A stretch of DNA of 64,000 bases from Prosthecobacter debontii (GTDB lineage: Bacteria > Verrucomicrobiota > Verrucomicrobiia > Verrucomicrobiales > Verrucomicrobiaceae): contig CAMAQH010000002.1 in the NCBI GenBank assembly GCA_945860295.1, positions 164,394 to 228,393 on the forward strand. Reading direction: 5' to 3'. Made by a program: the position numbers and the translations under genes. Of this stretch, positions 10,930-43,888 are shown piece by piece. Under the pieces are notes generated by a model, which saw only the letters and a list, made by a program, of their open reading frames with translations, was not told the origin of the DNA and made no database searches. Numbering within the stretch: position 1 is the first letter of the stretch; every line of letters begins with the position of its first letter.

Positions 10930-10939
10930 TGCATATGGG

Positions 10940-12457: not shown

Positions 12458-12529
12458 GTGGAGTTAACGAATGAATGGCAGACGCATTTCGCTGAAGTTT
12501 GCATCAGAGGCCGCGTTCACATTGCCGCC

Positions 12530-13269: not shown

Positions 13270-13962
13270 CTAAGCGCCTACCGCGTCTGCACGCTTGTTT
13301 TTGCCAAAGCGGATGTCTTGCGCCCTTTCGATGAAGATTGTGTCCTCACAGATGTTTTTTGCATGGTCACCTACACGCTCAAGAAAGCGTGCCACAAATA
13401 TGAGGTGAAGGTAGCCTTCGAGCGGTGCCTGACGCTCTTCCATGACTTGCAGCAATGAACTGTCAAAAGCCTTCTCGGCAGCATCAAGCAGTTTGTCAGC
13501 CAAACGAGCTTGTGCAGCGGCATCAGGATCGGCATCCGTAAATGCCTGCATGCTGCTCTCTAGATTGCGAGCGCAGAGATGATAGACCGGCTCAATAAGT
13601 TTCAACTCGGCAATCTCGGGCAGATTGTTGATGTTGCGTGCTCGTTTGGCGATGCCGCAGGCCTGATCGGAGATACGTTCGAGATTGTTGGCGATGCGGA
13701 CGGTGCCCATCACCTGACGGAGGTCGTGGGCGGTGGGCTGAAATTTCAGAAGAATCTGCATCCCAAGCTGATCGATGTTTTTCTCCAGATCGTTCACGTC
13801 CTGGTCCGCAGCGATGGCCGCATTGCAGAGATCCGAGTCGCGTTCCATGAGCCCACGCATAGCACTGGCGAGATTTTTTCGTGCCATGCTGGCCATCGTT
13901 AGCACCTGTTCACGGAGGCTGGTGAGGGCGGCGTTGAAGGAAGTCAAAATGTGGTCATGCAT
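13270..13962 (-). CDS. phoU: Phosphate signalling regulator PhoU
   Basis: Two PhoU repeats: DLRQVMGTVRIANNLERISD and ARFLERVGDHAKNICED. Confidence 0.92.
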   Translation of the reverse strand: MHDHILTSFNAALTSLREQVLTMASMARKNLASAMRGLMERDSDLCNAAIAADQDVNDLEKNIDQLGMQILLKFQPTAHDLRQVMGTVRIANNLERISDQACGIAKRARNINNLPEIAELKLIEPVYHLCARNLESSMQAFTDADPDAAAQARLADKLLDAAEKAFDSSLLQVMEERQAPLEGYLHLIFVARFLERVGDHAKNICEDTIFIERAQDIRFGKNKRADAVGA

Positions 13963-13985
13963 ATCTGGGACAGGATTTCCCTAGG

Positions 13986-14876
13986 TTACATGGGCAACGT
14001 CACATTTTCGACGCTTAATTTCACCTCGTTTGTCACACTCACACTCTTGATCGATCCCTTAGGCTGACGGTTCGTCCGCTGGCAGAAATCGTCATAAGAG
14101 ATGACTTCAAAGTCGCCGTTGTCATGCTCCAAAATGGCGGTCATGGACTCGACCCAGTCCCCAGAGTTAAGGTAGTGAGTCTCACCGACCATCTTATTGG
14201 CAGGGCTATGGATATGCCCGCAGATGATGCCCTTACAATTCCTGGCTCGTGCCAATTCCTGGAGTTGCTCCTCATATTTGCTGACGAAGCTCACGGCGGA
14301 TTTCACTTTGAGCTTCACCCAGCGGCTGAGTGAGAAGTTCTCCTTCCCACGGGCAAGACGATACCAATTGTAGATCCGGTTCACGCGCAAAAGGATGTTG
14401 TAACCAACACCGCCGAGCTTGGCGATCCACGGGTGGTTCGTCGTCACATGATCAAACCCGTCGCCATGCACGACAAGGTAGTCACCACGCTTGGTGTGGT
14501 GGATGTGTTCATTGGTGATGAGAAAATTGTCGAGCTGGATGGGAATGAACCGGTCGAGAATGTCATCGTGATTGCCGCGTAAATAAAGGATTTCGGTGCT
14601 CTCCTTCTCCATCTTCTTGAGCACAGTGCGCAGAAAATGGGTGTGTGACTTGTTCCAGCCGCCTGAGCTTTTTAAATACCACGCATCGATGATGTCGCCG
14701 TTCATGATCAGTCGGTCACATTGGACGTGACGAATGAAATGGGAGACCTGTGCCGCTTTGCAGTCCGGCATACCAAGATGAACATCAGAAATAAAGACCG
14801 TGCGTACGCGCAGCTTTAATTTCGAACGGGAAGGATCAGCCGGTGCATCTGGGGTATCGTCGATTTCTTCACTCAT
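13986..14876 (-). CDS. PlcP-like metallophosphoesterase (often annotated as UDP-2,3-diacylglucosamine hydrolase family); probable phospholipase C for lipid remodelling
   Basis: FISDVHLG, GDIIDAW, GNHDD, VHGDGFD, CGHIH and NSGDWVES motifs. The overall layout matches the PlcP family and the gene sits beside a GT4 gene and phoU. Confidence 0.8.
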   Translation of the reverse strand: MSEEIDDTPDAPADPSRSKLKLRVRTVFISDVHLGMPDCKAAQVSHFIRHVQCDRLIMNGDIIDAWYLKSSGGWNKSHTHFLRTVLKKMEKESTEILYLRGNHDDILDRFIPIQLDNFLITNEHIHHTKRGDYLVVHGDGFDHVTTNHPWIAKLGGVGYNILLRVNRIYNWYRLARGKENFSLSRWVKLKVKSAVSFVSKYEEQLQELARARNCKGIICGHIHSPANKMVGETHYLNSGDWVESMTAILEHDNGDFEVISYDDFCQRTNRQPKGSIKSVSVTNEVKLSVENVTLPM

Positions 14877-16009
14877 GATTGGGATAGGGTAGGTTTATTA
14901 GTCTGCACCGCGAAAAGTTCACCTTCAAACTGCTCGATGACACGCCGCCAGCCAAACTCGCTGACCGAATCGCAAGCCGCAGCACGCATCGCGGAATCAG
15001 ACCAGCTCGCTGCTGACTGACGCAGAGCGCCGAGAAAGGCGGCTTCATCATCAAAGGCAGCCAGCCAGCCATTTTCACCGGATCGGATGACCTGACGCGC
15101 TGCCGCATAGTCATAGGCAACGGGCAGCAAGCCGCTGGACATGGCTTCCAGCACCACATTGCCGAAGGTCTCGCTGATACTGGGAAAAATAAACACGTCC
15201 GCACTGGCATAGCACTCAGCGAGTTCGGTGCCAGTTTTTGACCCAACATAGAGACACTCTGGGTGCTCACTTTGCAGTGCTTTGAGCCGAGGGCCGTCAC
15301 CCACGACGACACAGGGCGCCTTCGGGTGCATTTCTCTAAATGCCGCGAAGCCTTGCAGAAGCAGCGACAAATTTTTTTCGGCAGCGACGCGCCCCACGTA
15401 GACTGCGACAGGCGTCGAGTCATCAACTCCCCACTCAGCTCTAAGGGCGGCGCTGCGCCGAGTTGGATTAAAAAGTTCGGTGTCCACGCCACGCCCGAGA
15501 ACGCCGACATTCTTAATGCCCCACTTTTCGAGCATCGCCGCCGTATCGGCACTCGGTGTCAGTGTGCGTGCCGTTTGGTTATGGATGCTGCGGAGAAATC
15601 CCTGCGCTAGGGCTTCAAGGCCCGGCAGATAATAGTCTTCGAGGTAGGATTGAAAATTCGTGTGAAAGCCAGAGACCACGGGGATTTCCATCTTCGATGC
15701 CGCGCGAATACTGGCAATGCCCAGCGGCGTCTCTGTGGCCACATAAATAACGTCTGGCCTGAATCGCTCATAGAGTCCCTGCATCTGCCAAGTCGTCGAG
15801 ATACCCATCCGCAGCCCTGGATAACCGGGCAGCGGCAGTGCCATCATGACGTGTCTTTTCAGCGACTCCTCACCCTGCCCTGCGGCCAGGGTGGTCACGA
15901 TCTCCACTTCATGCCCGCGTGCAGCTAGACCACCCGCGAGGGTGAAAAGCGTGCGTGACACTCCATTGATGTCTGGTGGGTAAGTGTCGGTGATGAGCAG
16001 CAATCTCAT
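14873..16009 (-). CDS. GT4 glycosyltransferase, Agt-like glycolipid (glycosyl-diacylglycerol) synthase candidate
   Basis: ITDTYPPDINGVSRTL, GFHTNF, YVGRVAAEKN and ETFGNVVLEAM (E-X7-E) motifs. Overlaps the plcP-like start by 4 nt. Confidence 0.85.
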   Translation of the reverse strand: MRLLLITDTYPPDINGVSRTLFTLAGGLAARGHEVEIVTTLAAGQGEESLKRHVMMALPLPGYPGLRMGISTTWQMQGLYERFRPDVIYVATETPLGIASIRAASKMEIPVVSGFHTNFQSYLEDYYLPGLEALAQGFLRSIHNQTARTLTPSADTAAMLEKWGIKNVGVLGRGVDTELFNPTRRSAALRAEWGVDDSTPVAVYVGRVAAEKNLSLLLQGFAAFREMHPKAPCVVVGDGPRLKALQSEHPECLYVGSKTGTELAECYASADVFIFPSISETFGNVVLEAMSSGLLPVAYDYAAARQVIRSGENGWLAAFDDEAAFLGALRQSAASWSDSAMRAAACDSVSEFGWRRVIEQFEGELFAVQTNKPTLSQS

Positions 16010-16107
16010 GTGTGCATGAACTAGTGGTACTTCACCCTTACAGAAAGCAGATTTTATGGCTAACAAAACGTGCCTGCGTGACGAATGCGTCACTGGAAAA
16101 ATGCCTC

Positions 16108-17826
16108 CTATTTAAACACAACGTCCACACCCATGGCGCTCTTGGAGGCGAACCCAGGAATCCAGTGCGGTTTACGCGTTGCGATCAGGCGATAAATCAG
16201 TGACAACCCACTGAGCACGATAAGCCGATCCACCATGCGGTAGCCACGCTGACGCCGCATGAGAAATTGAATAGCCCAGGCAAGATGCTTGGGGTTGAGC
16301 AGCAGCGGTTTAAAATCTGTCTTGATGCGATAACGCGCACGCAGGCCACGCTTGGCATACTTCAATTTGTACGCAGCTTTGGCCGCGACGATGCGCTCCT
16401 CGATATCAGGTGCATCCTCTGCAAAGTAGTATTCACGCGAGAGTGCTAGAAGGTGAAACGTGTCACGCATGTAACCAATATCAGCCACGGAGACGCCGGC
16501 ACGCTCGGCAAGCGGCAGCATGCGGTCCAGATTGTCCATGCAGCGCTGGGCACTGCGCAGCGCGCTATCGGCATCCCGGACAAAGTAGCGCAGCAGTCGC
16601 CTCAGACTATGACTGATGAAGATGTTTCCCCAATAGACCTGCAACATCGGCGGGATGCGCACGCGCCGAAAAAAGAGCTTTTGTCGCGCATACTCCTCGA
16701 TGTAGAGCAGCTCGCGGATGCATTCGTCAGATAGGCGCAGGAGCTCTAGCAGAGCATCTGCATCACCCAGATGACGCTCTTTGACAAAGTCCCGCACAGC
16801 ATCTTCAACAAGCGCTCCGTGCCTCATAACACGGATGGTAACAAAGGTATTGAGATCAGTCCATAGCGCTTCGGGATCGAGGAAGGCCAGCCGACGAAAA
16901 GGCACCCAACCACCCGTCTGCGCCCAGACCATGCAACCGATGACGTTCTCAGCCTGACGCAGCTCACGCGCATACTGTTCGTAGAGCCAGCCCGTGAAAC
17001 TGGGGTACTCGCCACAGCCCTCATACTCACGCCGCGTTTGTAGTTCCACGATCTTGGCTAGGGGTGTGCGGAAGAAGTTTCGATTCAGCGGCAGGTAGCG
17101 GAAAAAGTCAGTCTCGCCATACTTCATCGACACAACAAGGGCTGGGCTAGTGAGTCCCGCAAACACCCGCTTGAAGGTATCCCGGTGCCACATCAGATCT
17201 CCAATGGCATAAGCTCCCACGGTCCAGGTGCGGAAGATCAGCCGCCGACCATGCTTCTCAAAAACAGGCAGTAGCGCCTGCAAAAACGCGCGCGCATCTT
17301 GGGGAGTTTTGATAACGAGCTGACTTTGAAAGTCATCCCGCACGTCTTTACCATCTGACTCGCCAATGCGCACGATCACGCCCATGACATCGGGGAAGTC
17401 GGTGAAGAACCGATCCAGCAAATCACACAGATAGTCATTCACACTGGTGCGGTTCATATCCATCCGCCTCAGCAATTCTGGCGTTGCCGAAAAGACATCC
17501 ATCGTCACATGCAGGCTGAGACCAGCGCAGTGCAGCACTTCAAAGCAGCGCCGCATCTCTGTGCGGTAGCGCTGGATTCTGTGCCGAACCTCAGGCTCGA
17601 GCCAGTCGTGATCAGCCAGATGTGCCACATCATCGATGGAAGCCGCATTGAATCCCCAGCTTGCTGCCTGCAAGGCCAGCACGTTTAGCTCACTGCAAAC
17701 AGTTTCCCACCAGGCCGAACCCTGACTGCCCGCGTGATCCCAGGGGATCTTCGACCAGTTGATAACACGCCGATCATAGCCGCGAAAAAACGGGCCGATG
17801 GTGTCGATGAGATGGAGTTCAGTCAC
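16108..17826 (-). CDS. Hypothetical protein with GH67 alpha-glucuronidase-like motif order
   Basis: 572-aa ORF with GTG start. FPDVMGVIVRIGE, LIFRTW, SMKYGETDFF and ELQTRREYEG parallel recalled GH67 segments. Not verified by search. Confidence 0.55.
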   Translation of the reverse strand: MTELHLIDTIGPFFRGYDRRVINWSKIPWDHAGSQGSAWWETVCSELNVLALQAASWGFNAASIDDVAHLADHDWLEPEVRHRIQRYRTEMRRCFEVLHCAGLSLHVTMDVFSATPELLRRMDMNRTSVNDYLCDLLDRFFTDFPDVMGVIVRIGESDGKDVRDDFQSQLVIKTPQDARAFLQALLPVFEKHGRRLIFRTWTVGAYAIGDLMWHRDTFKRVFAGLTSPALVVSMKYGETDFFRYLPLNRNFFRTPLAKIVELQTRREYEGCGEYPSFTGWLYEQYARELRQAENVIGCMVWAQTGGWVPFRRLAFLDPEALWTDLNTFVTIRVMRHGALVEDAVRDFVKERHLGDADALLELLRLSDECIRELLYIEEYARQKLFFRRVRIPPMLQVYWGNIFISHSLRRLLRYFVRDADSALRSAQRCMDNLDRMLPLAERAGVSVADIGYMRDTFHLLALSREYYFAEDAPDIEERIVAAKAAYKLKYAKRGLRARYRIKTDFKPLLLNPKHLAWAIQFLMRRQRGYRMVDRLIVLSGLSLIYRLIATRKPHWIPGFASKSAMGVDVVFK

Positions 17827-18010
17827 GAGATTGGTCGGTCCAAAGTGAGTTAAGAGTATGCCAAATCAACCCTTTCTTCGCAATGCCTTTGCGCAGAGCT
17901 CGCCTGATGTTGCTGATAAGTTTAGCGACGCTGGCATAGGCTTTAAGTTCGTTAGAACGCTTCGGTAATGGCAGGGCATCAGCTAGCTTCTTGGCCCGTG
18001 GTCGTGGCAT
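17819..18010 (-). CDS. Possible small basic protein (63 aa)
   Basis: MPRPRAKK... Lys/Arg-rich ORF whose stop overlaps the next start by 8 nt. No family recognised. Confidence 0.3.
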   Translation of the reverse strand: MPRPRAKKLADALPLPKRSNELKAYASVAKLISNIRRALRKGIAKKGLIWHTLNSLWTDQSRD

Positions 18011-18370
18011 TACGATACCAGAGCTGCCCACCACCCAAGCCGCCGCCAATGTGGAGGCGGAAGCCTGCTGGTCATTTTTTCATACGTTCACGAAAGCGAT
18101 AGCGATCCAGTGCTAAAGTTCCCATGGAATTGAAAACCACTCAGTTCATCCGGGCCCGATAACCAGCGGCAGGCCCCGCAGTGCTTTTGCCCCACTCATC
18201 CGCAAGCCTGGAAGCACCTCTCCGATGCTTTGACAAAAAGCTGCCAGTCCACAAAGGCGCGACAATCGTTTTACGAGTATGAATAGCGCAGCACTCAACG
18301 ATGAAATCTACCCATGCTTTCTGCTGCCCGCCTCTTATCTGACACTTCCGTCACCCGATAGGGTCGGCGT

Positions 18371-18388
18371 GTGACGCAGTCGTCACCA
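18371..18388 (+). promoter_or_regulatory. Candidate Pho-box-like site upstream of phoB
   Basis: GTGACGCAGTCGTCACCA, with half-sites 11 bp apart. A weaker copy CTGAC-N6-GTCAC lies at 18339-18354. Confidence 0.55.
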
Positions 18389-18408
18389 AGAACGACTTGT
18401 CTTTGCTT

Positions 18409-18417
18409 TGTTATACT
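18409..18417 (+). promoter_or_regulatory. Extended -10 promoter element
   Basis: TGTTATACT (TGn + TATACT) 19 nt upstream of the phoB ATG. Confidence 0.45.
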
Positions 18418-18435
18418 ACGTAAACAAATATCATT

Positions 18436-19137
18436 ATGAGCAAAATATTAGTGGTCGATGACGAGCCGGATATTTCGGAGCTAATCTCACTGCATCTGAT
18501 GCGTGAAGGGCACGACTGCCTCTGCATCACCAACGGCCTACAAGTCATGCCCACCGTGCTGGAGCAGCAGCCAGACCTCGTCGTGCTTGACATCATGCTT
18601 CCGGGCCAAGATGGCATGACCGCATTCAAGCGCCTCCGTGGTGACAGCCGCACCCGCAGCGTGCCCGTCATTATGCTCACCGCCAAAGCTCAGATCACAG
18701 ACAAGATCAACGGGCTCGAACTCGGTGCTGACGACTATCTGACGAAACCCTTCTCACCGCGCGAATTGGCTCTGCGCATCAGTGCCATTTTGCGCCGCAC
18801 CAAGAAAGTCACTCATGTCTCAGAAGTGAAGAACGGAGCCTTCCTGTTGGACCGCAAGAACATGAAGTTCTTCCACAACGACACCACCATCGACCTAACC
18901 ACCACCGAGTTTAAGCTCCTGGCCGTCCTGCTGGAAAACACCAGTGCCGTTCATACTCGTAGCGAACTCTTGCGTGAGGTTTGGGGCTACTCTGACGATG
19001 TGGCCACCCGCACACTCGACACTCACATCAAACGTCTGCGTGAAAAATTAGGCGCTGCGGGCAAGCATGTCGTCACCGTGCGTGGAACGGGTTATCAGTT
19101 TGTGGTCAACCCCACAGATATTGCTGCCGCCGCTTGA
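18436..19137 (+). CDS. phoB: OmpR/PhoB-family response regulator, probably PhoB
   Basis: Receiver domain (VVDDE, LDIMLPG, KPF) and winged helix (RTLDTHIKRLREKLG, TVRGTGY). Context of phoU and a phoR-like kinase supports PhoB. Confidence 0.8.
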   Translation: MSKILVVDDEPDISELISLHLMREGHDCLCITNGLQVMPTVLEQQPDLVVLDIMLPGQDGMTAFKRLRGDSRTRSVPVIMLTAKAQITDKINGLELGADDYLTKPFSPRELALRISAILRRTKKVTHVSEVKNGAFLLDRKNMKFFHNDTTIDLTTTEFKLLAVLLENTSAVHTRSELLREVWGYSDDVATRTLDTHIKRLREKLGAAGKHVVTVRGTGYQFVVNPTDIAAAA

Positions 19138-19246
19138 TCGGAACGTTCAGAGTATGTCTTGCAGGTTGAGTCCTTGCATGAGCAGTGCTGACGTTTTCTG
19201 TGGCAAAAGAACGCTCTGAAGACTAACCGCACACGTACACTCCCAC

Positions 19247-20464
19247 ATGAATATTACTCTCAGCATCGCAATCATCGCCCTCATCGTGTGGGCATGGTGG
19301 CGCGAGAAAATGTGGCGTAGCAGCGTTGAAAAAGTCACCCACGCGGCTGGGCTCAAGACCTTCGAGGCCGACAAGCTCGCTGCGCTTTTTGTTGGCCTTA
19401 AAGAGGCCAATCATGCGCTCGTCAAAGAAGAATACCTGCGCCGCTTGTTTGAGGCTTTACTCAACGAGATCCGCCAAGGTGTGGCTATCGTCGATGATGA
19501 GATGCGCATCAAATTCTCTAATCGCACGCTGGCGCACCTTTTTCAGAAGACTCGCATCCATCGCGGTCGCATGCTCATTGAGGAGCTTCAGGACCATCAA
19601 ATCACCGATGTCGTCCAAAGTGCGCTCAAAGAGCAACGCCGCATCGTGCGCGAGATCGAGCTTTCCAACAGTACTAGCCTGACGAGTCGCTATTACCTCA
19701 TCGAAGCCGCGCCCCTGCCTGCCAAGGCGGAAAGCGGTGCGTGGCTCATGGTGCATGACATCACCGAGCAAACGATGGCCGAGCAGATCCGCAAAGATTT
19801 CGTCGCCAATGCCTCCCACGAACTGCGCACTCCGCTGACACTCATCAATGGTTATGTTGAAACCCTGCAAAGCGGTGTGCTCAAGGACGCGGCCACCATC
19901 CAGCGCTGCTACGACGTCATGGAAAAACATGGCAAGCGCATCGTCCGCATCATTGAGGACATGCTCACCATCTCGAGGCTTGAGAATGGTAACTCGGCGC
20001 TAAACATCGAGCCCTTCACCGCCCGTGCCTGCATGCAGGACTCACTGGACCAGCTCGCCCCCATGCTTCAACAGCGTGATGCACGCATCGATCTCGACTT
20101 GCCGGCCGATGGCGGGCACATGCGCGGAGATCGTTTTTATTGGGATCAGGTCTTCAGCAATCTCATTGAAAACTCGCTCAAAGAGAACCCCAACCCAGGT
20201 CTCGTCATCAAGATCACGGGCAAGTGGTTCGCCGATCACATTCTACTCACCGTCAGTGACAACGGCATCGGCATCGCCACTCACGACCTGCCCTTTGTTT
20301 TCAAACGCTTCTACCGTGGTCACAAACACCACAGTCCGCAGATCAAAGGCACCGGCCTGGGCCTCAGCATCGTCCGCCGCGCCATTGAAGCCCACGGCGG
20401 AACCATCGGCCTCACTAGCACTCCCGGAGTTGAGACCACGTTCACGATGCGAGTGCCCGTTTAG
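19247..20464 (+). CDS. phoR: PhoR-like sensor histidine kinase
   Basis: N-terminal TM, PAS-like region, H-box DFVANASHELRTPLT, and N/G boxes (NLIENS, VSDNGIGI, GTGLGL). Confidence 0.8.
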   Translation: MNITLSIAIIALIVWAWWREKMWRSSVEKVTHAAGLKTFEADKLAALFVGLKEANHALVKEEYLRRLFEALLNEIRQGVAIVDDEMRIKFSNRTLAHLFQKTRIHRGRMLIEELQDHQITDVVQSALKEQRRIVREIELSNSTSLTSRYYLIEAAPLPAKAESGAWLMVHDITEQTMAEQIRKDFVANASHELRTPLTLINGYVETLQSGVLKDAATIQRCYDVMEKHGKRIVRIIEDMLTISRLENGNSALNIEPFTARACMQDSLDQLAPMLQQRDARIDLDLPADGGHMRGDRFYWDQVFSNLIENSLKENPNPGLVIKITGKWFADHILLTVSDNGIGIATHDLPFVFKRFYRGHKHHSPQIKGTGLGLSIVRRAIEAHGGTIGLTSTPGVETTFTMRVPV

Positions 20465-20501
20465 CCGCGCTGCAAACGCGCAATGACGAGCTACAAATAA
20501 T

Positions 20502-32285: not shown

Positions 32286-32296
32286 AAGAATGAGAA

Positions 32297-33909: not shown

Positions 33910-33911
33910 GA

Positions 33912-35819: not shown

Positions 35820-35846
35820 GGAATGGTAGGAGAAATTCAAAACAGA

Positions 35847-36545
35847 TCAGGGCTTGCGCAGGGTGAGGCGCATTTTAACTGGCATGGGCTTGGGTGGGTC
35901 AGGCGGCAGTTCGTTCAGGTCAAGGCCGACGACGGCCTCACTAATGGCCGCGTCCACTGCGGGATCGCCTATGCTGCCGTTGAGGGATGCTTTGGTGATG
36001 CGCCCTGTGGCGTCTAACCAGATTTGTATGATGACGCTGCCTTCAGCCGTTTTAGTGATGTTGTTCCGGCTCAGCGCTGCTTGGATTCGGCTCGACATCA
36101 CGCCTTGATACCTGCCCCAGGCTGACCCGGTTCCGCCACCACCGCCACCGATGCCGCGGCCACCGCCACCACCACCGCCAATGGATAAACCATCGCCAGG
36201 GCCATTACCGACGAGTGCGGTACCCAGGGGTTCGTCCTTTGGTGCATCAGGTTTGTTATCTGGCTTCTCCGGGGGTTCTTCCTCCGGCTGCTCCATCTTC
36301 TCTTCTTCTTCCGGCGGCGGCTCTTCTTTCTTCGGTGGCGGCGGCGGTGGTGGTGGAGGCGGTGGCATGATAGGCATCACCATGACCATTTCCATTTTCT
36401 TTTTAGGCTTGGTTTCTTTGGATGGTTTTGAGGTCATGGCAAAATAGCCACCCCCAGCCAGCACTAAGGCGCCAACGATGATCATCACGAGATTGCGCCG
36501 GAAAAATCCGGGTTCGTCTTCGTCGTCTAAATCGTTAGCACTCAT
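35847..36545 (-). CDS. TonB-like energy transducer
   Basis: Single TM, poly-Pro/Glu linker, Gly-rich spacer and a TonB C-terminal-like domain (IQIWLDATGRI). Confidence 0.8.
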   Translation of the reverse strand: MSANDLDDEDEPGFFRRNLVMIIVGALVLAGGGYFAMTSKPSKETKPKKKMEMVMVMPIMPPPPPPPPPPPKKEEPPPEEEEKMEQPEEEPPEKPDNKPDAPKDEPLGTALVGNGPGDGLSIGGGGGGGRGIGGGGGGTGSAWGRYQGVMSSRIQAALSRNNITKTAEGSVIIQIWLDATGRITKASLNGSIGDPAVDAAISEAVVGLDLNELPPDPPKPMPVKMRLTLRKP

Positions 36546-36559
36546 GAATCAAAAACTCG

Positions 36560-36961
36560 TTATTTTTTGGACTGCGTCGCCAAGCCAACATGGGTGACAC
36601 CCGCACGACCAACGGCATTCAAAGCATCCATGATGAGCTGGTAGTTGGCATTGCTGTCACCACGGATCACCACGGGCACGTCGGGAGTGGCAGCGACGAT
36701 AGCCTCCATTTTGGTGCCCAACTCTTCAATCGTCACAGCCGTGGCATTCAGCTTGATGTTACCTTGATCGTCGATCGTGACGGCCTGCATTTTCGGGCCT
36801 TCGATGGGTGTCGAGGTCGCAGCGCCGCCGCGCGGTAGCTTGACTTTAACTCCCTGCACACCCGCTGTGGTCATGATGATAAAGATCAACAGGAGCACGA
36901 GGTAGAGATCCACCATCGGCGTGACGTTGATGTCGTCGTAAGATTTGCTGTCAGCTTGCAT
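36560..36961 (-). CDS. exbD: ExbD/TolR biopolymer transport protein
   Basis: INVTPMVDLYLVLLLIFII with the conserved TM Asp; VIRGD..NYQ motif. Confidence 0.92.
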   Translation of the reverse strand: MQADSKSYDDINVTPMVDLYLVLLLIFIIMTTAGVQGVKVKLPRGGAATSTPIEGPKMQAVTIDDQGNIKLNATAVTIEELGTKMEAIVAATPDVPVVIRGDSNANYQLIMDALNAVGRAGVTHVGLATQSKK

Positions 36962-36967
36962 GGAGGT

Positions 36968-38803
36968 TTAAGATTCTTTGTAATGCTCAGCCATTTTGGC
37001 GATGAACTCGTCAATGAAGGTCTCCATGTCATTCACGGCATCTTTGATGCGAGTGCTGAGGTAGCTGTAGGCAAACAGCGCCGGAATGGCGACAGCGAGA
37101 CCAGCCACAGTAGCGAGCAGCGCACCGGCGATACCTGGGGCGATGGAGTTCACCTCAACCTCTCCTGATTTGGCGATAACGGCGAAGGTGATCATCACCC
37201 CGATAACAGTGCCCAAAAGACCAAGGTAAGGACCACCTGCAATGCCGATGGTCAAATACACCAGCATGCTGTTGAGTCTCTGCACTTCACGCATCAGTCC
37301 GCCGTGCAGGGTGGCTTTAATGGCTTGAATCGAGCGGCCGGATAGTCCTTTGGACGAGCTTGGCGCTTCCTTCTCACCATTTTTCACACGCTGTTCGATC
37401 TCTTCAGAACCCAGATGGTAAATGTGATACAGCGGTGAGTGCTTCATCAGCTTTTGCGCTTTTGCGCTGACCGTGCCGCCCATGGACTTAATGCTGTTGG
37501 CATCCGACGAATCCAGTGCCGTCAAATCCGAGGAGACCTTTTTCCAGCGTTCGAGGAATACCTTGTTCGCTTTCCCGATTTTGTTCAAATAGAAGAATTT
37601 TGCAATGGCAACCCCCCAACCGACGACGGCTAGGAGCGCGCAGAGAAAGATGACGACCCAGCCATCAATCGTCAGATCTTTGGAAATGCCCTGGATCAAT
37701 GAGAGATGCTTGGCCATCTCACTTTCTTCCTCGTGATCGGAAGCTTCATCAGAACCGACGACGAGGAGTTTGGCAGCCTCTGCACCTGTGCCTTGATTCA
37801 CTGCAGCAAGCTGGATGAAGCCGGCTGGTCGCGCGACTTTGGCGATCTGGAGTTCGTCGATCTCACCGGTGAAACCTGCCAGTGAAGCAGCGGCGGCTGA
37901 GGTATCTTTGTCGATCTCAATGATGCCTTTCAGGGCTGGCAGGGCAGCGGTCAGGGCTCCGTAGGACTTGCCGTCGAGATACACCGTGACATTGCCCGCC
38001 TCAGCCACAGCGGCCAGATGATGCCAGCCACCAGCGGCGATCGGAGCACCTGCCGTGCTGCGCTTGGTGTTGATCTCAACAAAAGGCACGCCGTTGTCGA
38101 GACCGAGGATGAAAGCATTCGCTCCTTCGCGGCGGCTAAGGATGACGGCATTTGCCTGCAAGGCGCTTGGCTTGATCCAAACCGAAACAGTGGCGGCTGC
38201 GCCGGCGGCCCAATCCAGGGCGGGGTTCGCCGCCACCTTGATCGCGCTCTGACCAAACAAACGCATACCGCCCGAGATAAGCGAGCTTGCAGCTGGCGGT
38301 GGCGCGCCTTCGGCATTCACCCCAGAGGCAGAGGAGTCAGCACCAGCCTTTGATGCATCAGCGAAGTGATAGACCAGCGTTGTATTTTCATCATACGTTT
38401 CCTTGGCGGCGGCAGCGCTTGCGGCTTCGGTCGTGTTGCCATAATACAGCCAAATGGAGGTGGCGGCGGCAGGCTTCAGATCTGGCACCTGAACCCAGAC
38501 ATAGGCTTCGTTGAGCAGGGAATCCCACTTCTCAACGTGGTGCTTGAGCAGAGTTTTATGATCATCAGCCGTGAAGCGCAGGTCACTGCCGTCCTCACGC
38601 CCTGACATGAAACTGAAGATGCCTTCATGCAGACGCACGAGGACGGCGGTGGTGCCGATGGGCGCGGTGATGGCGGTGCTCTTGGTGTCGATGTCGATCT
38701 TCTTGCGGATCGTCCATTTGGCATCGTGCCAATTTTTTTCCGCCGCTGAAAGGGAGCCGACGAGAGTCACGAAAGCGAAAGTGATGATGAACCTATTAAA
38801 CAT
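36968..38803 (-). CDS. exbB: ExbB/MotA/TolQ proton-channel subunit fused to DUF2341 and LamG-like domains
   Basis: N-terminal DGSDLRF..L.HHVEKW..WVQVP (DUF2341); WIKP..WHHLA..YLDG..IDEL (LamG); C-terminal PYLGLLGTVIG..GIAGALLATVAGL. Confidence 0.88.
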   Translation of the reverse strand: MFNRFIITFAFVTLVGSLSAAEKNWHDAKWTIRKKIDIDTKSTAITAPIGTTAVLVRLHEGIFSFMSGREDGSDLRFTADDHKTLLKHHVEKWDSLLNEAYVWVQVPDLKPAAATSIWLYYGNTTEAASAAAAKETYDENTTLVYHFADASKAGADSSASGVNAEGAPPPAASSLISGGMRLFGQSAIKVAANPALDWAAGAAATVSVWIKPSALQANAVILSRREGANAFILGLDNGVPFVEINTKRSTAGAPIAAGGWHHLAAVAEAGNVTVYLDGKSYGALTAALPALKGIIEIDKDTSAAAASLAGFTGEIDELQIAKVARPAGFIQLAAVNQGTGAEAAKLLVVGSDEASDHEEESEMAKHLSLIQGISKDLTIDGWVVIFLCALLAVVGWGVAIAKFFYLNKIGKANKVFLERWKKVSSDLTALDSSDANSIKSMGGTVSAKAQKLMKHSPLYHIYHLGSEEIEQRVKNGEKEAPSSSKGLSGRSIQAIKATLHGGLMREVQRLNSMLVYLTIGIAGGPYLGLLGTVIGVMITFAVIAKSGEVEVNSIAPGIAGALLATVAGLAVAIPALFAYSYLSTRIKDAVNDMETFIDEFIAKMAEHYKES

Positions 38804-38845
38804 GAGTGAAGCGTGGTTTAGGAGTGGTGAAAAAAGTCGGGGAGA

Positions 38846-40501
38846 TTAGAAATCGAACCAAAGGCGGAAGCGGGCATTGAACTCGTTGGCGATGGCGTTG
38901 GGCTGATCAATCAGCGGCAGGGCAAGGTCAACTGAACCATGCAGATGCTCATGCCAACGAATGCTTGTGCCGATACCGACACTCGCCAGATCAAAGTAGT
39001 TGGCCTGAGCTGGTAGCGTCTTGTTAACAAAAACTCTGCCTTGATCATAGAAGGCATAAAAACGCCATTCATCAGGACTATCCTTGGCCTCTGCGCCCAG
39101 CAGCGTTGGACTGCGAAGTTCGGCTGTGCCAATTATGCCGCTGTCGCCCAATTGCGTCGCCTCAAGGTAACCACGCACAGAACTGAGTCCGCCGATGGAG
39201 ACCTGCTCTGTGTTAATCAACGAAGAGCCGCTCAGCTGACTTTGGATTTTAGCAAATGCCTTGAAGCCGCCTGGTAAATCATGCGTGTGGGATATATCTC
39301 CCCGAAGATGAAAGAATCCATCATCCGCCTGATACCGCCTTATGCCAAGGCCTTCAGCCGTGTCATTGCTGCCAAGGCCACGAAGGTGAAACGTCGTCGT
39401 CAGGTTCAAGTCGGTGTAGCTATTTTTGCGCACCTGACCGGCACTATAACTCAGCGTCATTGGGAAATAAGTGACCGGAGATGAATTCACCGTGCCCGCC
39501 GCGATCAGATCCTGTTCAAAATTCTTATAGTCCATGCCGAAACTTAACGAATGGAAAAAACCGTCTTCAGATGGCAACTGCTTCAGCAAACGGAAGCCTA
39601 AAACCTCTCCACGGCCTGCCACTGCACCACCACCCAGGGTGGAGACGTTGCTGTCCTGCTTGGTTCCCGTGAGCATGAGGCTGAGTCCGTCCTGACCGGG
39701 CACGGGCAGCATGTAGTAGCCGGAAAAAACACGGGCATCATCTGCCCGCTCAGGTGCCACCTGATAGCTCAGCCCGAACGTGTGGCCCAACTGCCAAAGG
39801 TTGCCGTAGCTGACGTTGGCATTGAGGCGGAAAGGCGTCGTATTGGCGTTGTAGCGGTTGTTGAGTTCGATGCTCCCGTGAAACGGTGATTTATCTTCGA
39901 CGATGAGATCGATGTCCACCGTTCCAGGCACCACGCCAGGTCGCAACTCCGGAGTGACTTTCCGGTCTGGCGATTGATTGAGCGCCACCAGATCCTTTTG
40001 GACCTGATTAAAATCTGGAACCACGCCTTCCTGCATCGAAGGCGCTTTTTTGAGGATGTCACTCGGCAGATACCACTTGGCACCCTTCACCCTCAACCTG
40101 CCCACAGGCGCTTCAACGGCTTTCAAATAGATCACTCCACCGCGCGCATCTTGCTGTGGCACCTCGATATAAACCGTCTGATAGCCACGGTCTTTGTACG
40201 CTTTTTCGAGCGCCTGCCGCGCCTGTTCGACATCTTGCTCACCGCGCCTCGGCCCCATGAATGGATACACAGCTTTTTCAAACTCACGCGCAGTTAAAAT
40301 CTTACCACCGCGCAGACGGTACTCGCGGATGTAAATATTGCCTAGCGCTGGCTCATCAGCCTTGGCAGCCTGAGCTGTTTCCGCTGTTGCTGGTTCGGCC
40401 CGGCCCTCGATCGACGGCACAGCCAGCAGGCAGCAAAAACAAGTCCAGAAACGGACCTGCGCGGCGCGCGCAAGAATGAGAGTGGGCAGTTTGGGATGCA
40501 T
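38846..40501 (-). CDS. TpsB (ShlB/FhaC/HecB) outer-membrane translocator
   Basis: POTRA-like N-terminus, loop-6 motif GGLSSVRGY, terminal Phe; SD AAGGA upstream. Confidence 0.9.
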   Translation of the reverse strand: MHPKLPTLILARAAQVRFWTCFCCLLAVPSIEGRAEPATAETAQAAKADEPALGNIYIREYRLRGGKILTAREFEKAVYPFMGPRRGEQDVEQARQALEKAYKDRGYQTVYIEVPQQDARGGVIYLKAVEAPVGRLRVKGAKWYLPSDILKKAPSMQEGVVPDFNQVQKDLVALNQSPDRKVTPELRPGVVPGTVDIDLIVEDKSPFHGSIELNNRYNANTTPFRLNANVSYGNLWQLGHTFGLSYQVAPERADDARVFSGYYMLPVPGQDGLSLMLTGTKQDSNVSTLGGGAVAGRGEVLGFRLLKQLPSEDGFFHSLSFGMDYKNFEQDLIAAGTVNSSPVTYFPMTLSYSAGQVRKNSYTDLNLTTTFHLRGLGSNDTAEGLGIRRYQADDGFFHLRGDISHTHDLPGGFKAFAKIQSQLSGSSLINTEQVSIGGLSSVRGYLEATQLGDSGIIGTAELRSPTLLGAEAKDSPDEWRFYAFYDQGRVFVNKTLPAQANYFDLASVGIGTSIRWHEHLHGSVDLALPLIDQPNAIANEFNARFRLWFDF

Positions 40502-40562
40502 TTTTTCCTTCTTAAATAGCTCTCATTCTTTCCGTTCCATCGCCTTTCCCTCAAGATGCGAA

Positions 40563-40580
40563 TGGTGACGATTGTGTCAC
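40563..40580 (-). promoter_or_regulatory. Candidate Pho-box-like site upstream of the tpsB operon
   Basis: Minus strand GTGACACAATCGTCACCA, 16/18 identical to the site upstream of phoB. A weaker copy lies at 40626-40641. Confidence 0.55.
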
Positions 40581-40647
40581 CAAGTTGCTCCGTTCACCGA
40601 TATCCACCCTGAATTTCCATCTTTTGTGTCGTTACCGTCACTTGTTT

Positions 40648-41409
40648 TTAGCGAGCCGTCCTGACTTGCAGTTGATAGGCGTTAAAAAGTCGCCAACCCA
40701 GCATGGCGCGCAGTTTGGCATCTGCGCTCCATTGCGCATTGTTCCAGCGGGCTCGGTACTCTGGATCTTGGGCGTTCTGGGGGCCGATTTCCTGGGTGAA
40801 ATTTCTCTGCATGTTTTCAATGTCCATGACATCGCGTTCGGACAAACCTAGGGATTCTGGATTGTACTCCTGAAAAACAAGCGGTAATTTAGGCCGGGAA
40901 GCCTGCGCGTTCGGCAAAGTGACGATGGGCTTGGTCAGGATTTGCTGCTGAATAGGCGCCAGTTTCGAGTTGGTTATGCGCGACTCCAGGGATCTAAAGG
41001 CAGCAGACTCTATTGGCACTTGAGTCTGATCTTGCGTCGCTGGACTCATGACTTCTGTCTTCGCGCTGATTTTGACGTCCTTGACCGCCGCTGATTCGGG
41101 GTGCGGTGAGATGGAGGCGTCTCTGACCGTCGAGACAGACACCCTCCCCGCTGTTTGCGCTGCTACTTCAGAGGGTCTATTGGCTCGCGGAGATCCTGGG
41201 GTGAAAGTCAGATCTTCGGTTTTAACCAGTTTCTTGCTCGATAACGACTCTTGATCATCCCGTGATTTGACTTGCGGGGCAGCCCCTAGTTGCATGCCAA
41301 ACCAAACTGCCACAGGCAAACAGCCTAGCAATAACCAGCAGAGTGCCGCTGGCACCTGCCGCCTGACTTTTTTTAAGGGGGCACTATCGGGTAACCGAAT
41401 ACGTTTCAT
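40648..41409 (-). CDS. Hypothetical single-TM protein with helical C-terminal domain
   Basis: 253-aa ORF with TM ALCWLLLGCLPVAVWFGM, a low-complexity linker and a helical tail. Confidence 0.6.
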   Translation of the reverse strand: MKRIRLPDSAPLKKVRRQVPAALCWLLLGCLPVAVWFGMQLGAAPQVKSRDDQESLSSKKLVKTEDLTFTPGSPRANRPSEVAAQTAGRVSVSTVRDASISPHPESAAVKDVKISAKTEVMSPATQDQTQVPIESAAFRSLESRITNSKLAPIQQQILTKPIVTLPNAQASRPKLPLVFQEYNPESLGLSERDVMDIENMQRNFTQEIGPQNAQDPEYRARWNNAQWSADAKLRAMLGWRLFNAYQLQVRTAR

Positions 41410-41423
41410 GCTTTGCTGGATCG

Positions 41424-41460
41424 AAAAGAAAAAACCGGTGAGGAATGGTTACCTCACCGG
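41424..41460 (-). terminator. Rho-independent terminator
   Basis: 9-bp perfect stem CCGGTGAGG/CCTCACCGG with an 8-nt loop, followed on the minus strand by TTTTTTCTTTT. Confidence 0.85.
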
Positions 41461-41498
41461 CCAGATTATGAGTGTAAGGCTAGTTTAGCCTGGCAAGA

Positions 41499-43049
41499 CT
41501 ATTCCTCAGGGAAGATGTATTTGCTCGTGACGATACCACCGTCTTCGGAGCGGCTGACTCTCAAGGAAGCCTCAGAGAGACCAGCGTAGAAAAAGTCAAC
41601 GTCATGGATACGATCAGCAAGATTGTTGAAGAAGGTGAATTTGTCACCCGTGGTCAGACTTGCACGCTTGAGGAAAAGTTCATAACCCCAGAGGGTGTAG
41701 GCACCACTCCAGATAGACGCAGGAAGTACGTTGGAAGCCTGGAAGTTAGCGGTTGCTGTAGCCGATGCCAGTGCAGGTTTGGACAGTGTTACTTCGGTAC
41801 CGTTGGCATTAATGCTGACGATGACGTTATCAGTATCCAATTGGCCGCTGGTGCTGCGGACGAACTGTCCGACAACGAGACCCGTGGTGACGATATTGGA
41901 GACAACGGCACTACCAATGGTGGTTGTGGCGTTGTTCGAGGTGTAAAGCTTGCCACCAAAAGCATTGACGCCATTGTAGCTCAAATATCTGGCACCAACG
42001 TTGGTGATTCCGTTAACGCTAGAAGCAGTGCCATTCACAGCACGATCAGCATCGGTTTCACTCATGTAACCGATGAAAGCAGCCTTGGTGCTGACAAGTG
42101 CTGCAGTGTCGTTGATGGAAGTGGTTTTGTAGCGCAGCCAATCAGCCATGTTAGCTCCGGAGATGCCGTTATTGCCAGCGAGAACAGGATTCAATGAGTC
42201 TGTAGTTGTGTCTGCGGACGTAGGAGAAACCGCGCCAGCCTCAATGTTTGGGCTGGTGCCTGTTCCTGCTGCTACAGTCCACTGATTGACGGCTGAACCA
42301 GTTCCCAAGCCAGTTTCAGACATGACAACCACACGTGTGCCTGAGAAAGGGTCGCGACCCAAGGCATAAATCATGGTGCCACCGACCTGATCCGAAGCAT
42401 CCGTTGGATTGTTGGTGAACAAGGCAGCCGAGGCACGACCTGTTGAGTAGAGGGACTGGAACAGCTGGGAAGTGACGTTGGTCACAGCAGCTGGCATGTC
42501 GCGACTCGCCACGAACGTGAATGGCACTACACCGACGTTTCGGCTGTCCAGCGTGTTGTTGGTGTAAATGGTCGAGCTTTGAGTATTGTCGGCAAAGGCG
42601 AAGTCAGCTTGGCTGTTATCATCCAAGTTATCTGCATTCACGCCTGCTGTACCTGTTGCGCTCAGCGCATAAATAGTGCCATTGGCAGATGTGCTTGGGT
42701 TGAGCGCCAAGAACTTAACATTGACTGCAGTTCCGTTGGTATTTCCGCTGATAGCACGAATACCAGCAACTGAGCCTGACCAAGTACATTTGACAGTTAC
42801 CACTTGGCCTGGGAAAGCGGCCATTGTGCCGACAAAAATAGCGTTTGCGCTAGCTTCGAGAGTGGTACTATTGAAAGCATAACCATAATCAATGCCACCT
42901 GCATCAGCAGGGAAAGTCATGGTGTTCTTGATGGCGTTGACGGCTGATGCACGGAAGGCCGTGGCACCCGTGATTTTGACGGTGAGGTCAGCAGAGGCGG
43001 TGTTAGCTGCGAGCAAGGCTGCAGCGATGAGAGTTGCTTTGAATTTCAT
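41499..43049 (-). CDS. Secreted protein with PstS/periplasmic-binding-protein-like motifs
   Basis: Signal peptide; ITGATAF, GVVPFTFVAS, GRDPFSGTR, YLSYNGV and GAYTLWGYE segments resemble the PstS-like PBP fold. Confidence 0.55.
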   Translation of the reverse strand: MKFKATLIAAALLAANTASADLTVKITGATAFRASAVNAIKNTMTFPADAGGIDYGYAFNSTTLEASANAIFVGTMAAFPGQVVTVKCTWSGSVAGIRAISGNTNGTAVNVKFLALNPSTSANGTIYALSATGTAGVNADNLDDNSQADFAFADNTQSSTIYTNNTLDSRNVGVVPFTFVASRDMPAAVTNVTSQLFQSLYSTGRASAALFTNNPTDASDQVGGTMIYALGRDPFSGTRVVVMSETGLGTGSAVNQWTVAAGTGTSPNIEAGAVSPTSADTTTDSLNPVLAGNNGISGANMADWLRYKTTSINDTAALVSTKAAFIGYMSETDADRAVNGTASSVNGITNVGARYLSYNGVNAFGGKLYTSNNATTTIGSAVVSNIVTTGLVVGQFVRSTSGQLDTDNVIVSINANGTEVTLSKPALASATATANFQASNVLPASIWSGAYTLWGYELFLKRASLTTGDKFTFFNNLADRIHDVDFFYAGLSEASLRVSRSEDGGIVTSKYIFPEE

Positions 43050-43093
43050 GTAAAAAAGAATTTAAAGTTGGATCAGTAGAATTGAATTTAAAA

Positions 43094-43888
43094 TTAACGA
43101 CGGCGACGGAACAAAAGGCCGCAGAGGCCCAAACCGAGAAGAAGAGCACGACTTGGCTCTGGGACCGCAGCAGCTGCGAAAGGCGCTTGGCTGTTGAAGG
43201 AGAGAGCACCGTTGCTGCTCATGATGAAGGAGCCTTCGTAGGTTCCGACTGCTCCCGAGGAAGAACCAGCGAGACGGAAAAGGTCGAGCTGGGAGTTTTC
43301 ACCCACAACACCTTCGACGTTCCAAGCCGAGTTACCAAATTGTGTCGCCGAAATACGAGTATTCCAAGTATTGGCACCTACATTTGACTGTGTCAGGCCT
43401 GGGGTGGTGATGTCTTGACCGGCATAAGCAGATCCTACTGATGCGATGTTACCGCCAATGACTTGCTGAGCGGATACTGTTCCACGCGTGAAGGAAGAAC
43501 CAGCAGTACCATAGGTAGCTTGCTCGCGGGTGCCGTAGAGCACGCCAGAAGCTTCACCATCAACGGTGGATACCGTGTTATTACCTGCCACAATGCCCCA
43601 CTTCACCGAACCGTCTGTGTACCAGTTGGCACCAAACACGGTCGCAAGCTGTGCGTCCAAGTCTGCGGCGGCAGCGATGGGTGTGAGTTCACCCGTGGCG
43701 TTCTTGAAGACAGAGGTAGCTCCGAGATTGACAATGACGCTGTTGGCAGCGCTGCTTGAGCGGAAGCCCAAGAGAAGATTGCCCGTGCTGAACGCTGTGG
43801 TCACAGCAGACGCAGAGGCCGAGACGAACATCACGCCGGCGATCGCCAGGAGGAAGGTCGTTTTAAGAGAGGTTTTTTTCATTTGCAT
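43094..43888 (-). CDS. PEP-CTERM exosortase-target surface protein
   Basis: Signal peptide; C-terminal VPEPSRALLLGLGLCGLLFRRRR. Confidence 0.92.
   Translation of the reverse strand: MQMKKTSLKTTFLLAIAGVMFVSASASAVTTAFSTGNLLLGFRSSSAANSVIVNLGATSVFKNATGELTPIAAAADLDAQLATVFGANWYTDGSVKWGIVAGNNTVSTVDGEASGVLYGTREQATYGTAGSSFTRGTVSAQQVIGGNIASVGSAYAGQDITTPGLTQSNVGANTWNTRISATQFGNSAWNVEGVVGENSQLDLFRLAGSSSGAVGTYEGSFIMSSNGALSFNSQAPFAAAAVPEPSRALLLGLGLCGLLFRRRR

Follow-up and report, generated by a model that had tools for sequence, protein, structure and literature searches.

The 64,000-nucleotide stretch of Prosthecobacter debontii DNA analysed in this work (contig CAMAQH010000002.1, positions 164,394 to 228,393; 'the window' hereafter) carries, at 13270-47204, a cluster of genes with Pho-type boxes: a GT4 glycosyltransferase gene, plcP and phoU, then the divergent phoB-phoR pair, then a convergent 20-kb two-partner secretion (TPS) cassette and, beyond it, the genes of a PEP-CTERM protein and of a protein with the PstS fold. 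This is probably a cluster of transcription units of the Pho regulon, and neither one machine nor a mobile island. Common control by PhoB is the best reading of it because of the box that the units share, the homology of the PlcP/Agt pair and of the TPS cassette to known systems, and the PstS fold. PhoB binding, induction at low phosphate and the products of the enzymes are what we infer from the sequence.

The genome under study (4.68 Mb in 75 contigs) is called G000 below, the window being C2:164394-228393 of it; other G-numbers denote genomes of relatives, L-numbers fetched loci and C-numbers contigs. A preliminary description of this DNA had drawn the cluster as four contiguous units ending at 43888 and read them as one PhoB-controlled system. 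All four are in place by Pfam and NCBIfam profile searches of the open reading frames (ORFs) of the window, from which the domain identities given below come. Common PhoB control stands as the best reading, but one system it is not; among the genomes examined the units are contiguous only here, and the box-bearing cluster reaches about 47204.

The box as a candidate Pho box

The box has a consensus of 17 bp, GTGACrCAnTCGTCACC, made of two GT(G/C)AC half-sites with 11-bp spacing. The near-identical 18-bp copies before phoB (18371-18388, + strand) and tpsB (40563-40580, - strand) on which the preliminary description drew are real, agreeing at 16 of 18 positions, but a third strong copy, before GT4 (16076-16093, - strand), and a fourth (45507-45523, + strand) were overlooked. 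With up to three mismatches allowed, the 18-bp box has four matches in the window against 0.59 expected, and the strict form GTGAC-N6-GTCAC, for which base composition predicts about 5 sites in the genome, has 12, three of them here. In a scan of the whole genome with a position weight matrix (PWM) of the core, built from sites of the genus, the three top sites are the boxes before phoB, GT4 and tpsB. Sites scoring at least 16 number 28 genome-wide, about one per 170 kb, and five of them lie within this 0.7% of the genome.

The best site of the genome is the proximal box of phoB (GTGACGCAGTCGTCACC, 18371-18387, +, score 25.5), accompanied by a distal box (CTGACACTTCCGTCACC, 18339-18355, +, score 17.5); the two start 32 bp apart, the distal one at 18339, and a TATACT hexamer follows the proximal box at 18412-18417. 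The second best (GTGACGCATTCGTCACG, 16077-16093, -, score 25.3) lies 68 bp upstream of the GT4 start and overlaps the GTG with which the mechanically called GT4 ORF begins. In both promoters a -10-like hexamer follows 20-24 bp after the end of the box. The third best is the proximal box of tpsB (GTGACACAATCGTCACC, 40564-40580, -, score 25.0), whose promoter region (40564-40641) also holds a weak distal box (40625-40641, -). A further box (GTGACTCTTTCGACACC, 45507-45523, +, score 17.8) stands 68 bp upstream of the ATG at 45591, and a weak inverted one at 43992-44008, about 105 bp upstream of the PEP-CTERM gene, has counterparts in G014, G016 and G021.

This box is very probably the Pho box of the Verrucomicrobiaceae and a candidate PhoB site, because it has the 11-bp geometry of OmpR/PhoB sites, because it is conserved at pstS and between phoB and GT4, and because it is found at other targets of phosphate starvation. 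Of 17 Prosthecobacter genomes, 14 (all but G000, G005 and G009) have one or two boxes scoring 19-24 at a distance of 70-200 bp before pstS, and the divergent region between phoB and GT4 has a box in all 11 fetched loci of the genus, at the same position upstream of GT4. Some copies are pure direct repeats, such as CTGAC-N6-GTCAC before phoB, and GTCAC-N6-GTCAC before phoB2, the gene of a PhoB paralogue discussed below. A second cluster in G000 (C42:10343-18978) has boxes before a DUF3419 and methyltransferase gene pair, and several before the gene of a 2126-amino-acid (aa) secreted protein with Ig-like, PhoX, EEP (endonuclease/exonuclease/phosphatase) and Endonuclease_1 domains. DUF3419 is the betaine-lipid synthase type, BtaA, with a function in phosphate starvation (PMC10685587). 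In 15 of 18 relatives the 400 bp before btaA contain no conserved box, so the btaAB site is supportive only in G000. The strict palindrome alone was rejected as a marker of the regulon, its nine other sites being mostly intragenic or before genes without a phosphorus link. A literature search found no published Verrucomicrobial Pho box.

When the regions upstream of tpsB from 12 species are aligned, the mean column identity is 49%, and just two blocks are invariant, the proximal box and, 9-10 nt downstream, a TTGAG (window 40540-40560). A second, looser box stands about 60 bp further upstream. A box scoring at least 16 is found within about 350 bp in at least 19 loci of Verrucomicrobiaceae, plus one of Haloferula and two of Chthoniobacterales. 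As such scores are as rare as one in about 170 kb, and the box is nevertheless kept in at least 19 loci, we take it for a phylogenetic footprint and not for a product of chance. No obvious sigma-70 -10 sequence is seen at the usual distance, and transcription from this promoter may depend on a different sigma factor, as it does for the Pseudomonas counterpart.

Lipid-remodelling and phosphate-regulator genes

The agt-like GT4 gene (14873-16009, -; ORF 14873-16093), whose true start is the ATG at 16009 and not the GTG at 16093, encodes a predicted glycolipid glycosyltransferase with Glyco_transf_4 and Glycos_transf_1 domains, its best NCBIfam matches being lipid glycosyltransferases, all under cut-off. 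Its reading frame overlaps by 4 bp that of the plcP-like gene (13986-14876, -), the product of which is an LpxH-like metallophosphoesterase (Metallophos in Pfam) with the motifs DxH, GD, GNHD, H and GHxH all intact; it is predicted to be an enzyme of the phospholipase C type yielding diacylglycerol. The 'PlcP-like' and GT4 labels of the preliminary description are borne out, since the two are clear homologues of a characterised pair of the PlcP/Agt1 type in P. aeruginosa: PlcP is 41% identical (E 1e-66) to a plcP-type protein whose gene precedes an agt1-type gene, and GT4 matches the product of the latter along its whole length with 31% identity (E 7e-54). The P. aeruginosa PlcP match is annotated as an LpxH-type diphosphatase, before genes for a family-1 glycosyltransferase and an adenylate cyclase, and from species and gene order we infer that this is the PA3219-PA3218 arrangement of PMC8528852. 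Verrucomicrobia already figure among the listed carriers of PlcP, where the criterion was a BLASTP E < 1e-40 (PMC4796936).

The unit ends with phoU (13270-13962, -; TIGR02135, 159 bits against a cut-off of 130), the sole copy in G000, which adjoins plcP in 18 of 24 genomes of the genus. As the preliminary description had said, the window has no pstSCAB; the operon, pstS-C-A-B-B, is at C12:85549-91156, in a region (C12:82714-91156) with two tandem pstB genes and no phoU. Downstream of that operon are an opposite-strand ORF resembling extracytoplasmic function (ECF) sigma factors, an orphan OmpR-family regulator (C12:83916-84650) and then prfB. The orphan was considered for the part of the true PhoB and rejected: it has no kinase partner, is only 35-37% identical, and is separated from pstB by the opposite-strand gene.

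The primary regulator (PhoB1) is encoded by phoB (18436-19137, +), for which the best NCBIfam match is TIGR02154 (PhoB), with 235 bits against a cut-off of 296, and it nests in the PhoB1 clade of the genus tree. G000 contains no second PhoB-like paralogue (PhoB2), and its PlcP is likewise single. The product of phoR (19247-20464, +) is a kinase of the PhoR/PnpS type with PAS, HisKA and HATPase domains, one N-terminal membrane helix and no periplasmic domain; PnpS and PhoR are its best matches, under their cut-offs.

The TPS cassette and adjoining surface genes

The TPS operon (20502-40501, -) is about 20 kb long, with gaps of -4 to 42 bp between genes, and converges on phoR. It runs from tpsB (38846-40501, -; POTRA_2 and ShlB barrel) through an ExbB fused to periplasmic DUF2341 and LamG domains (36968-38803, -; Pfam), an ExbD/TolR (36560-36961, -; PF02472), a TonB-like protein (35847-36545, -; TonB_2, TIGR01352), a Porin_5 outer-membrane barrel with an N-terminal helical stalk (33912-35840, -; PF16930, 610 bits), a 233-aa coiled-coil protein (33208-33909, -) and a PpiC-type peptidyl-prolyl isomerase (PPIase; 32297-33211, -; Rotamase in Pfam) to tpsA (20502-32285, -). 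The last encodes 3927 aa, with a TPS domain at 155-353, a PDZ domain at about 3531-3609 and DUF3739 at 3745-3855; by Pfam the PDZ domain (window 21450-21665) thus stands just before DUF3739 in the C-terminal region. Almost every Verrucomicrobiota locus of sufficient length also has the gene of the coiled-coil protein.

The preliminary description had likened this operon to pdtA/pdtB-exbB2-exbD2-tonB4 of P. aeruginosa, and it does prove homologous, gene by gene, with clusters of that kind. Orthology with P. aeruginosa was read via clusters of Klebsiella, Burkholderia and Pseudomonas abyssi and published gene lists; it puts Porin_5, the coiled-coil protein and the PPIase at the positions of PA0696, PA0697 and PA0699, respectively. 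Against the plasmid clusters of Methylosinus and Klebsiella quasipneumoniae, identities are 39-44% for TpsB, 37-48% over the full length for the ExbB fusion, 36-52% for ExbD, 36-41% for Porin_5 (a 'putative porin' there), 31-33% for the coiled-coil protein (against its counterparts in L125 and L126), 31-37% for the PPIase and 31-34% for the C-terminus of TpsA. The Klebsiella order (TpsA, TpsB, ExbB, ExbD, TonB, porin, hypothetical, YbjN, PPIase, hypothetical, LysR) is that of the published P. aeruginosa PA0674-PA0701 gene list (PMC2729926). The Klebsiella cluster carries receptor-like, ECF sigma and anti-sigma genes, as does the Methylosinus one, and no sigma-70/ECF, FecR or TonB-dependent-receptor domain is found in any ORF of 9394-48162.

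Upstream of tpsB lies the gene of a 253-aa single-pass membrane protein (40648-41409, -) without a family match, the C-terminal part of which is kept at this place in several species. It is followed by that of a 516-aa secreted protein (41499-43049, -), which the preliminary description had called 'PstS-like'. The label fits: its AlphaFold2 (AF2) model (predicted local distance difference test, pLDDT, 78.7; predicted template-modelling score 0.80), compared with PDB structures by Foldseek, has the PstS fold with inserted beta modules. Phosphate-binding proteins make up all of its 32 best PDB matches (4lat with E 1.9e-8 and a template-modelling score, TM, of 0.77 on the target), and the motifs GSTAF, SGS, FSD and R-x3-SGT are kept across 23 homologues. 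At the level of sequence there is no Pfam match even at E 5, a PDB sequence search gave nothing useful (as was the case for PlcP and Porin_5), and hhalign comparisons of the family with the PstS of G000 and with a PBP_like_2 protein of Methylosinus, where a probability of 14% was obtained, established no clear relationship. No permease genes are found near it, and it has no pstCAB partner. Next comes the gene of a PEP-CTERM surface protein (43094-43888, -; PF07589, TIGR02595); the PEP-CTERM and PstS-fold pair stands upstream of tpsB in most Verrucomicrobiaceae loci.

On the other strand are a 447-aa membrane protein without a family match (44111-45454, +), the membership of which in the cluster is uncertain, and a membrane-anchored, helical TPR-like protein (45591-47204, +; weak TPR_19 match), homologues of which are encoded directly downstream of tpsA in G001, G002, G006, G014, G016, G021 and G024. 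On the Methylosinus sp. C49 plasmid NZ_AP022333 (L125, 36789-41698) a 573-aa PBP_like_2 (PstS-type) protein, encoded beside TpsA, and two TPR proteins border the alphaproteobacterial cassette. They parallel the PstS-fold and TPR-like partners of Prosthecobacter, but no similarity in sequence was detected.

The 572-aa protein

Between GT4 and phoB lies the gene of a 572-aa cytoplasmic, glycosidase-like protein (16108-17826, -), for which the AF2 model (pLDDT 72.8) gives a TIM barrel with a C-terminal helical bundle. The name 'GH67-like' used in the preliminary description has no family-level support: the protein has no Pfam match (even at E 5), nor any in NCBIfam or by sequence in the PDB, and GH67 is absent from its 50 best folds, the best being GH138, GH20 and GH84 at TM 0.33-0.50. 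The label goes back to the UniRef names of two homologues and to one precomputed, weak PF07488 match in a distant homologue. In the approximately 510 bp between this gene and the boxes of phoB (17827-18338) there is no convincing ORF, and none longer than 76 aa.

This position of the gene is found in G000 only; in G005 it precedes GT4, on a short contig without phoBR. In close relatives it is the first gene of a btaA-btaB operon and is preceded by a strong Pho box (L184:10001-13656; L187:10001-13638), and on contig C89 of G024 it occurs together with PlcP2 (a second PlcP), btaA, a TPR gene and the 3' end of tpsA. The family thus accompanies three gene sets for phosphorus-free lipids, namely agt-plcP (G000, G005), plcP2 (G017, G024) and btaA-btaB, and is a candidate new enzyme of lipid metabolism under phosphate starvation.

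Just upstream of phoU, window 9394-13112 holds two full-length genes of the sulfatase family and a 213-aa ORF with a sulfatase fragment only, possibly a pseudogene. Similar sulfatases adjoin the 572-aa gene in P. dejongeii (L188).

Conservation of linkage in relatives

The linkage of the units in relatives, which the preliminary description would have expected to be conserved, is so only in part: pairwise associations (PhoB-type regulators with PlcP and with the cassette) recur, but in none of the other genomes examined are the units contiguous as in these 31 kb. PhoR-PhoB is divergent from GT4-PlcP-PhoU in 11 of the 12 fetched loci of the genus, and GT4-PlcP-PhoU is also present in two further families of the order. 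The TPS cassette was found in 21 of the 40 relatives searched, and its order, read as far as contig ends in 80 fetched cassette loci, is kept across Verrucomicrobiota; in no other genome examined does it stand beside the primary phoBR.

In G001, G002, G006, G014, G016, G021 and several metagenome-assembled genomes (MAGs) the cassette is flanked instead by a second regulator pair, PhoB2/PhoR2 (61% and 47% identity), and by PlcP2 (about 64%). In the tree the PhoB2 sequences make up a supported clade of their own, whose sister group comprises all the primary PhoBs of the genus; the PlcP tree, with its long outgroup branch, does not resolve when PlcP2 originated. Among Chthoniobacteraceae a PhoB-family regulator stands immediately upstream of tpsB, and in L085 so does a PlcP-like gene. 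Four contigs with a Verrucomicrobiaceae-type cassette (L048, L098, L079 and L118) bear the names Akkermansia muciniphila, uncultured Enterobacteriaceae or uncultured Chloroflexia in their records, probably through mis-binning or mislabelling of MAG contigs.

The box also differs in its second half-site. This takes the form GTCAC at pstS, phoB, GT4 and phoB2, and at the tpsB of G000, which lacks PhoB2, and of the MAG L064, which has no adjacent PhoB2; at the tpsB of species with PhoB2/PhoR2 it is GTAAC. This could be a specificity switch between the PhoB paralogues, and the pattern would fit a cascade from PhoB1 to PhoB2 to the cassette in sister species, with direct control by PhoB1 in G000.

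Alternative explanations

Several observations weigh against control of the whole cluster by the primary PhoB. The scores of PhoB and PhoR fall under the NCBIfam equivalog cut-offs, and at the pstS promoter of G000 nothing better than a degenerate TTCAT-N6-TTCAC is seen, which holds for its two nearest relatives as well. The tpsB box stands upstream of the TTGAG, and not over the -35 as it does at phoB and GT4, which suggests a different class of promoter. In PhoB2 species the second half-site of this box reads GTAAC, and there the cassette travels with PhoB2/PhoR2, so that it may naturally be regulated by a protein other than the primary PhoB. The cassette of G013 is unlinked, and the 37.7 kb around it contain no box. 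Finally, a box that is nearly palindromic could, as far as its letters go, be the site of a dimeric factor other than PhoB.

A rival reading is that the cassette stands outside the primary phosphate response and belongs to a PhoB2/PhoR2 circuit answering some other cue, its adjacency to phoBR in G000 being an accident of rearrangement or a relic, and its box resembling a Pho box merely as the two regulators are paralogues. The sister species do hold a primary phoBR locus in addition to the PhoB2/PhoR2 beside their cassettes, the PhoB2 clade is well supported, and PhoR2, a cytoplasmic PAS kinase, has no membrane helix; the GTAAC of their tpsB boxes, as against the GTCAC of pstS, phoB and GT4, and the existence of unlinked, box-free cassettes of the G013 type, speak for it too. 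We nevertheless regard this explanation as rather improbable, since G000 has no PhoB2 and its tpsB box is of the GTCAC form and scores like those of phoB and GT4. The GTCAC-type boxes in phoB2 promoters themselves fit a cascade from PhoB1 to PhoB2 better than independence, a second PlcP, i.e., an enzyme of phosphate starvation, invariably accompanies PhoB2, and the homologous cassette of P. aeruginosa is PhoB-dependent (PMC4971064).

We think it very unlikely that an unrelated dimeric regulator of palindromes uses the box as its operator, and that the box is present at phosphorus promoters by coincidence or as part of another stress regulon. GTGAC-N6-GTCAC is a perfect inverted repeat, and some of the strong sites stand before genes without an obvious tie to phosphorus (such as a TPR protein, C16:25351, and adenylate kinase, C1:93262), but many functional-looking copies are direct repeats with the 11-bp period of OmpR/PhoB sites, and the genes that carry the box (pstS, phoB, plcP/agt, btaAB-like and the PhoX-nuclease gene) make up the classical set of a Pho regulon.

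Hardly credible is a horizontally acquired genomic island uniting the four units over 31 kb: the G000 ExbB, 70-78% identical to that of the distant G001-type species as against 57-61% to those of the nearer G013, G008 and G003, hints that the cassette, or its type, moved or was sorted, but the G+C content of the region, 0.52-0.59, is like that of its surroundings, the window has a single tRNA (at 53707), which lies about 6.5 kb beyond the cluster and does not flank it, no integrase or transposase domain occurs in the cluster ORFs scanned, and the phoBR/GT4-plcP-phoU core is vertically conserved in the genus. The 'island' of the preliminary description is therefore given up, the cluster showing no sign of horizontal acquisition.

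Proposed mechanism and significance

Under common control by PhoB, low phosphate would free PhoR from inhibition by PstSCAB/PhoU, and PhoB, once phosphorylated by PhoR, would bind the 17-bp box as a tandem dimer. It would activate its own phoBR operon and the GT4-plcP-phoU unit, where PlcP would remove the head groups of phospholipids, leaving diacylglycerol for GT4 to glycosylate into a phosphorus-free glycolipid, whilst the co-induced PhoU would act as negative feedback, i.e., as a built-in brake. PhoB would also activate the cassette (with TpsB as pore, TpsA as a giant fibre, an ExbB-ExbD-TonB motor of its own, the Porin_5 barrel, the coiled-coil protein and a PpiC chaperone), the gene of the TPR-like membrane protein and, probably, the PEP-CTERM and PstS-fold pair. 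For the role of the cassette our leading guess is phosphorus capture or attachment to phosphorus-rich particles, because of its PstS-fold partner and of the phosphate link that spans the two phyla.

One may go further and picture the cassette as an organelle of phosphorus acquisition with an ancient, cross-phylum tie to phosphate starvation, wired directly to PhoB in Verrucomicrobia but, in sister species, through the duplicated PhoB2/PhoR2 pair in a cascade from PhoB1 to PhoB2, with the GTCAC and GTAAC forms of the half-site giving the specificity. A phosphorus source would be captured and imported together with the PstS-fold binder, the PEP-CTERM protein and the Porin_5/TonB motor, and the 572-aa protein would supply a missing enzyme of phosphorus-free lipid metabolism. 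As a whole this picture is speculative, and we think it rather improbable.

A candidate Pho box for the Verrucomicrobiaceae would make the predicted Pho regulon readable from any Prosthecobacter genome. A tie between the PdtA/PdtB cassette and the phosphate response would be added for a second phylum, remote from the first, and would run through PhoB or its paralogue instead of an ECF sigma factor, which argues that phosphate limitation is central to the purpose of the cassette; a PstS-fold protein as its conserved partner sharpens that hypothesis. PhoU is placed here in a lipid-remodelling operon instead of with pst, and an uncharacterised GH-like family accompanies three gene sets for phosphorus-free lipids.

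Comparison with known systems

The modules of the cluster are known ones, and what is found here is a variant of them: phoU inside the agt-plcP operon, predicted direct control of the PhoB type over a PdtAB-type cassette without an ECF sigma factor, a PhoB2/PhoR2/PlcP2 set in sister species, PstS-fold and PEP-CTERM partners, and a defined candidate Pho box. This box resembles that of Proteobacteria (CTGTCAT-N4-CTGTCAT) in having two half-sites one helical turn (11 bp) apart, and its half-site spacing may be likened to that of the actinobacterial PHO box, which is made of direct-repeat units. Like known Pho boxes it occurs at pstS, phoB and genes of phosphorus scavenging, and near the -35 at phoB and GT4; unlike them it has the half-site GT(G/C)AC, its commonest form is an imperfect palindrome, and at tpsB it lies upstream of a TTGAG.

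With the PlcP-Agt pathway of Sinorhizobium (SMc00171), Phaeobacter (MED193), SAR11 (HTCC7211) and P. aeruginosa (PA3219/PA3218) the cluster shares adjacent plcP and GT4 genes behind a predicted Pho box (PMC8528852, PMC4796936). The order here is agt then plcP, however, the reverse of that in the known systems; phoU follows in third place, away from pstSCAB, an arrangement kept in the genus and two other families; and a gene for a GH-like 572-aa protein sits between the unit and phoB. The 516-aa protein, for its part, resembles PstS and PBP_like_2 proteins in its fold and in the order of its phosphate-binding motifs, but it matches no sequence family, is about 200 aa larger with its beta inserts, and has a PEP-CTERM partner in place of pstCAB.

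The closest parallel to the cassette is the P. aeruginosa locus PA0690-PA0701, which is under PhoB and sigma-VreI (PUMA3) and has a matching gene set and order: TpsB, a long ExbB, ExbD, TonB, a porin, a coiled-coil/signal-peptide protein, PpiC and a giant TpsA. There the link to phosphate comes from electrophoretic mobility shift assays, in which PhoB binds the promoters of pdtA and phdA, the phdA transcript spanning pdtB, exbB2D2, tonB4 and PA0696-PA0701 (PMC4971064); here it is predicted from conserved boxes. The vreA/vreI/vreR, phdA, YbjN (PA0698) and LysR genes of that locus are not in the Prosthecobacter version, where the neighbouring regulator is phoBR or, in sister species, PhoB2/PhoR2. 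In P. aeruginosa tpsA is divergent, whereas here it is the last gene of the operon, and PEP-CTERM, PstS-fold and TPR membrane proteins are kept here as additional partners. In formal terms, the cascade from PhoB1 to PhoB2 that would fit the sister species is like that from PhoB to sigma-VreI in Pseudomonas.

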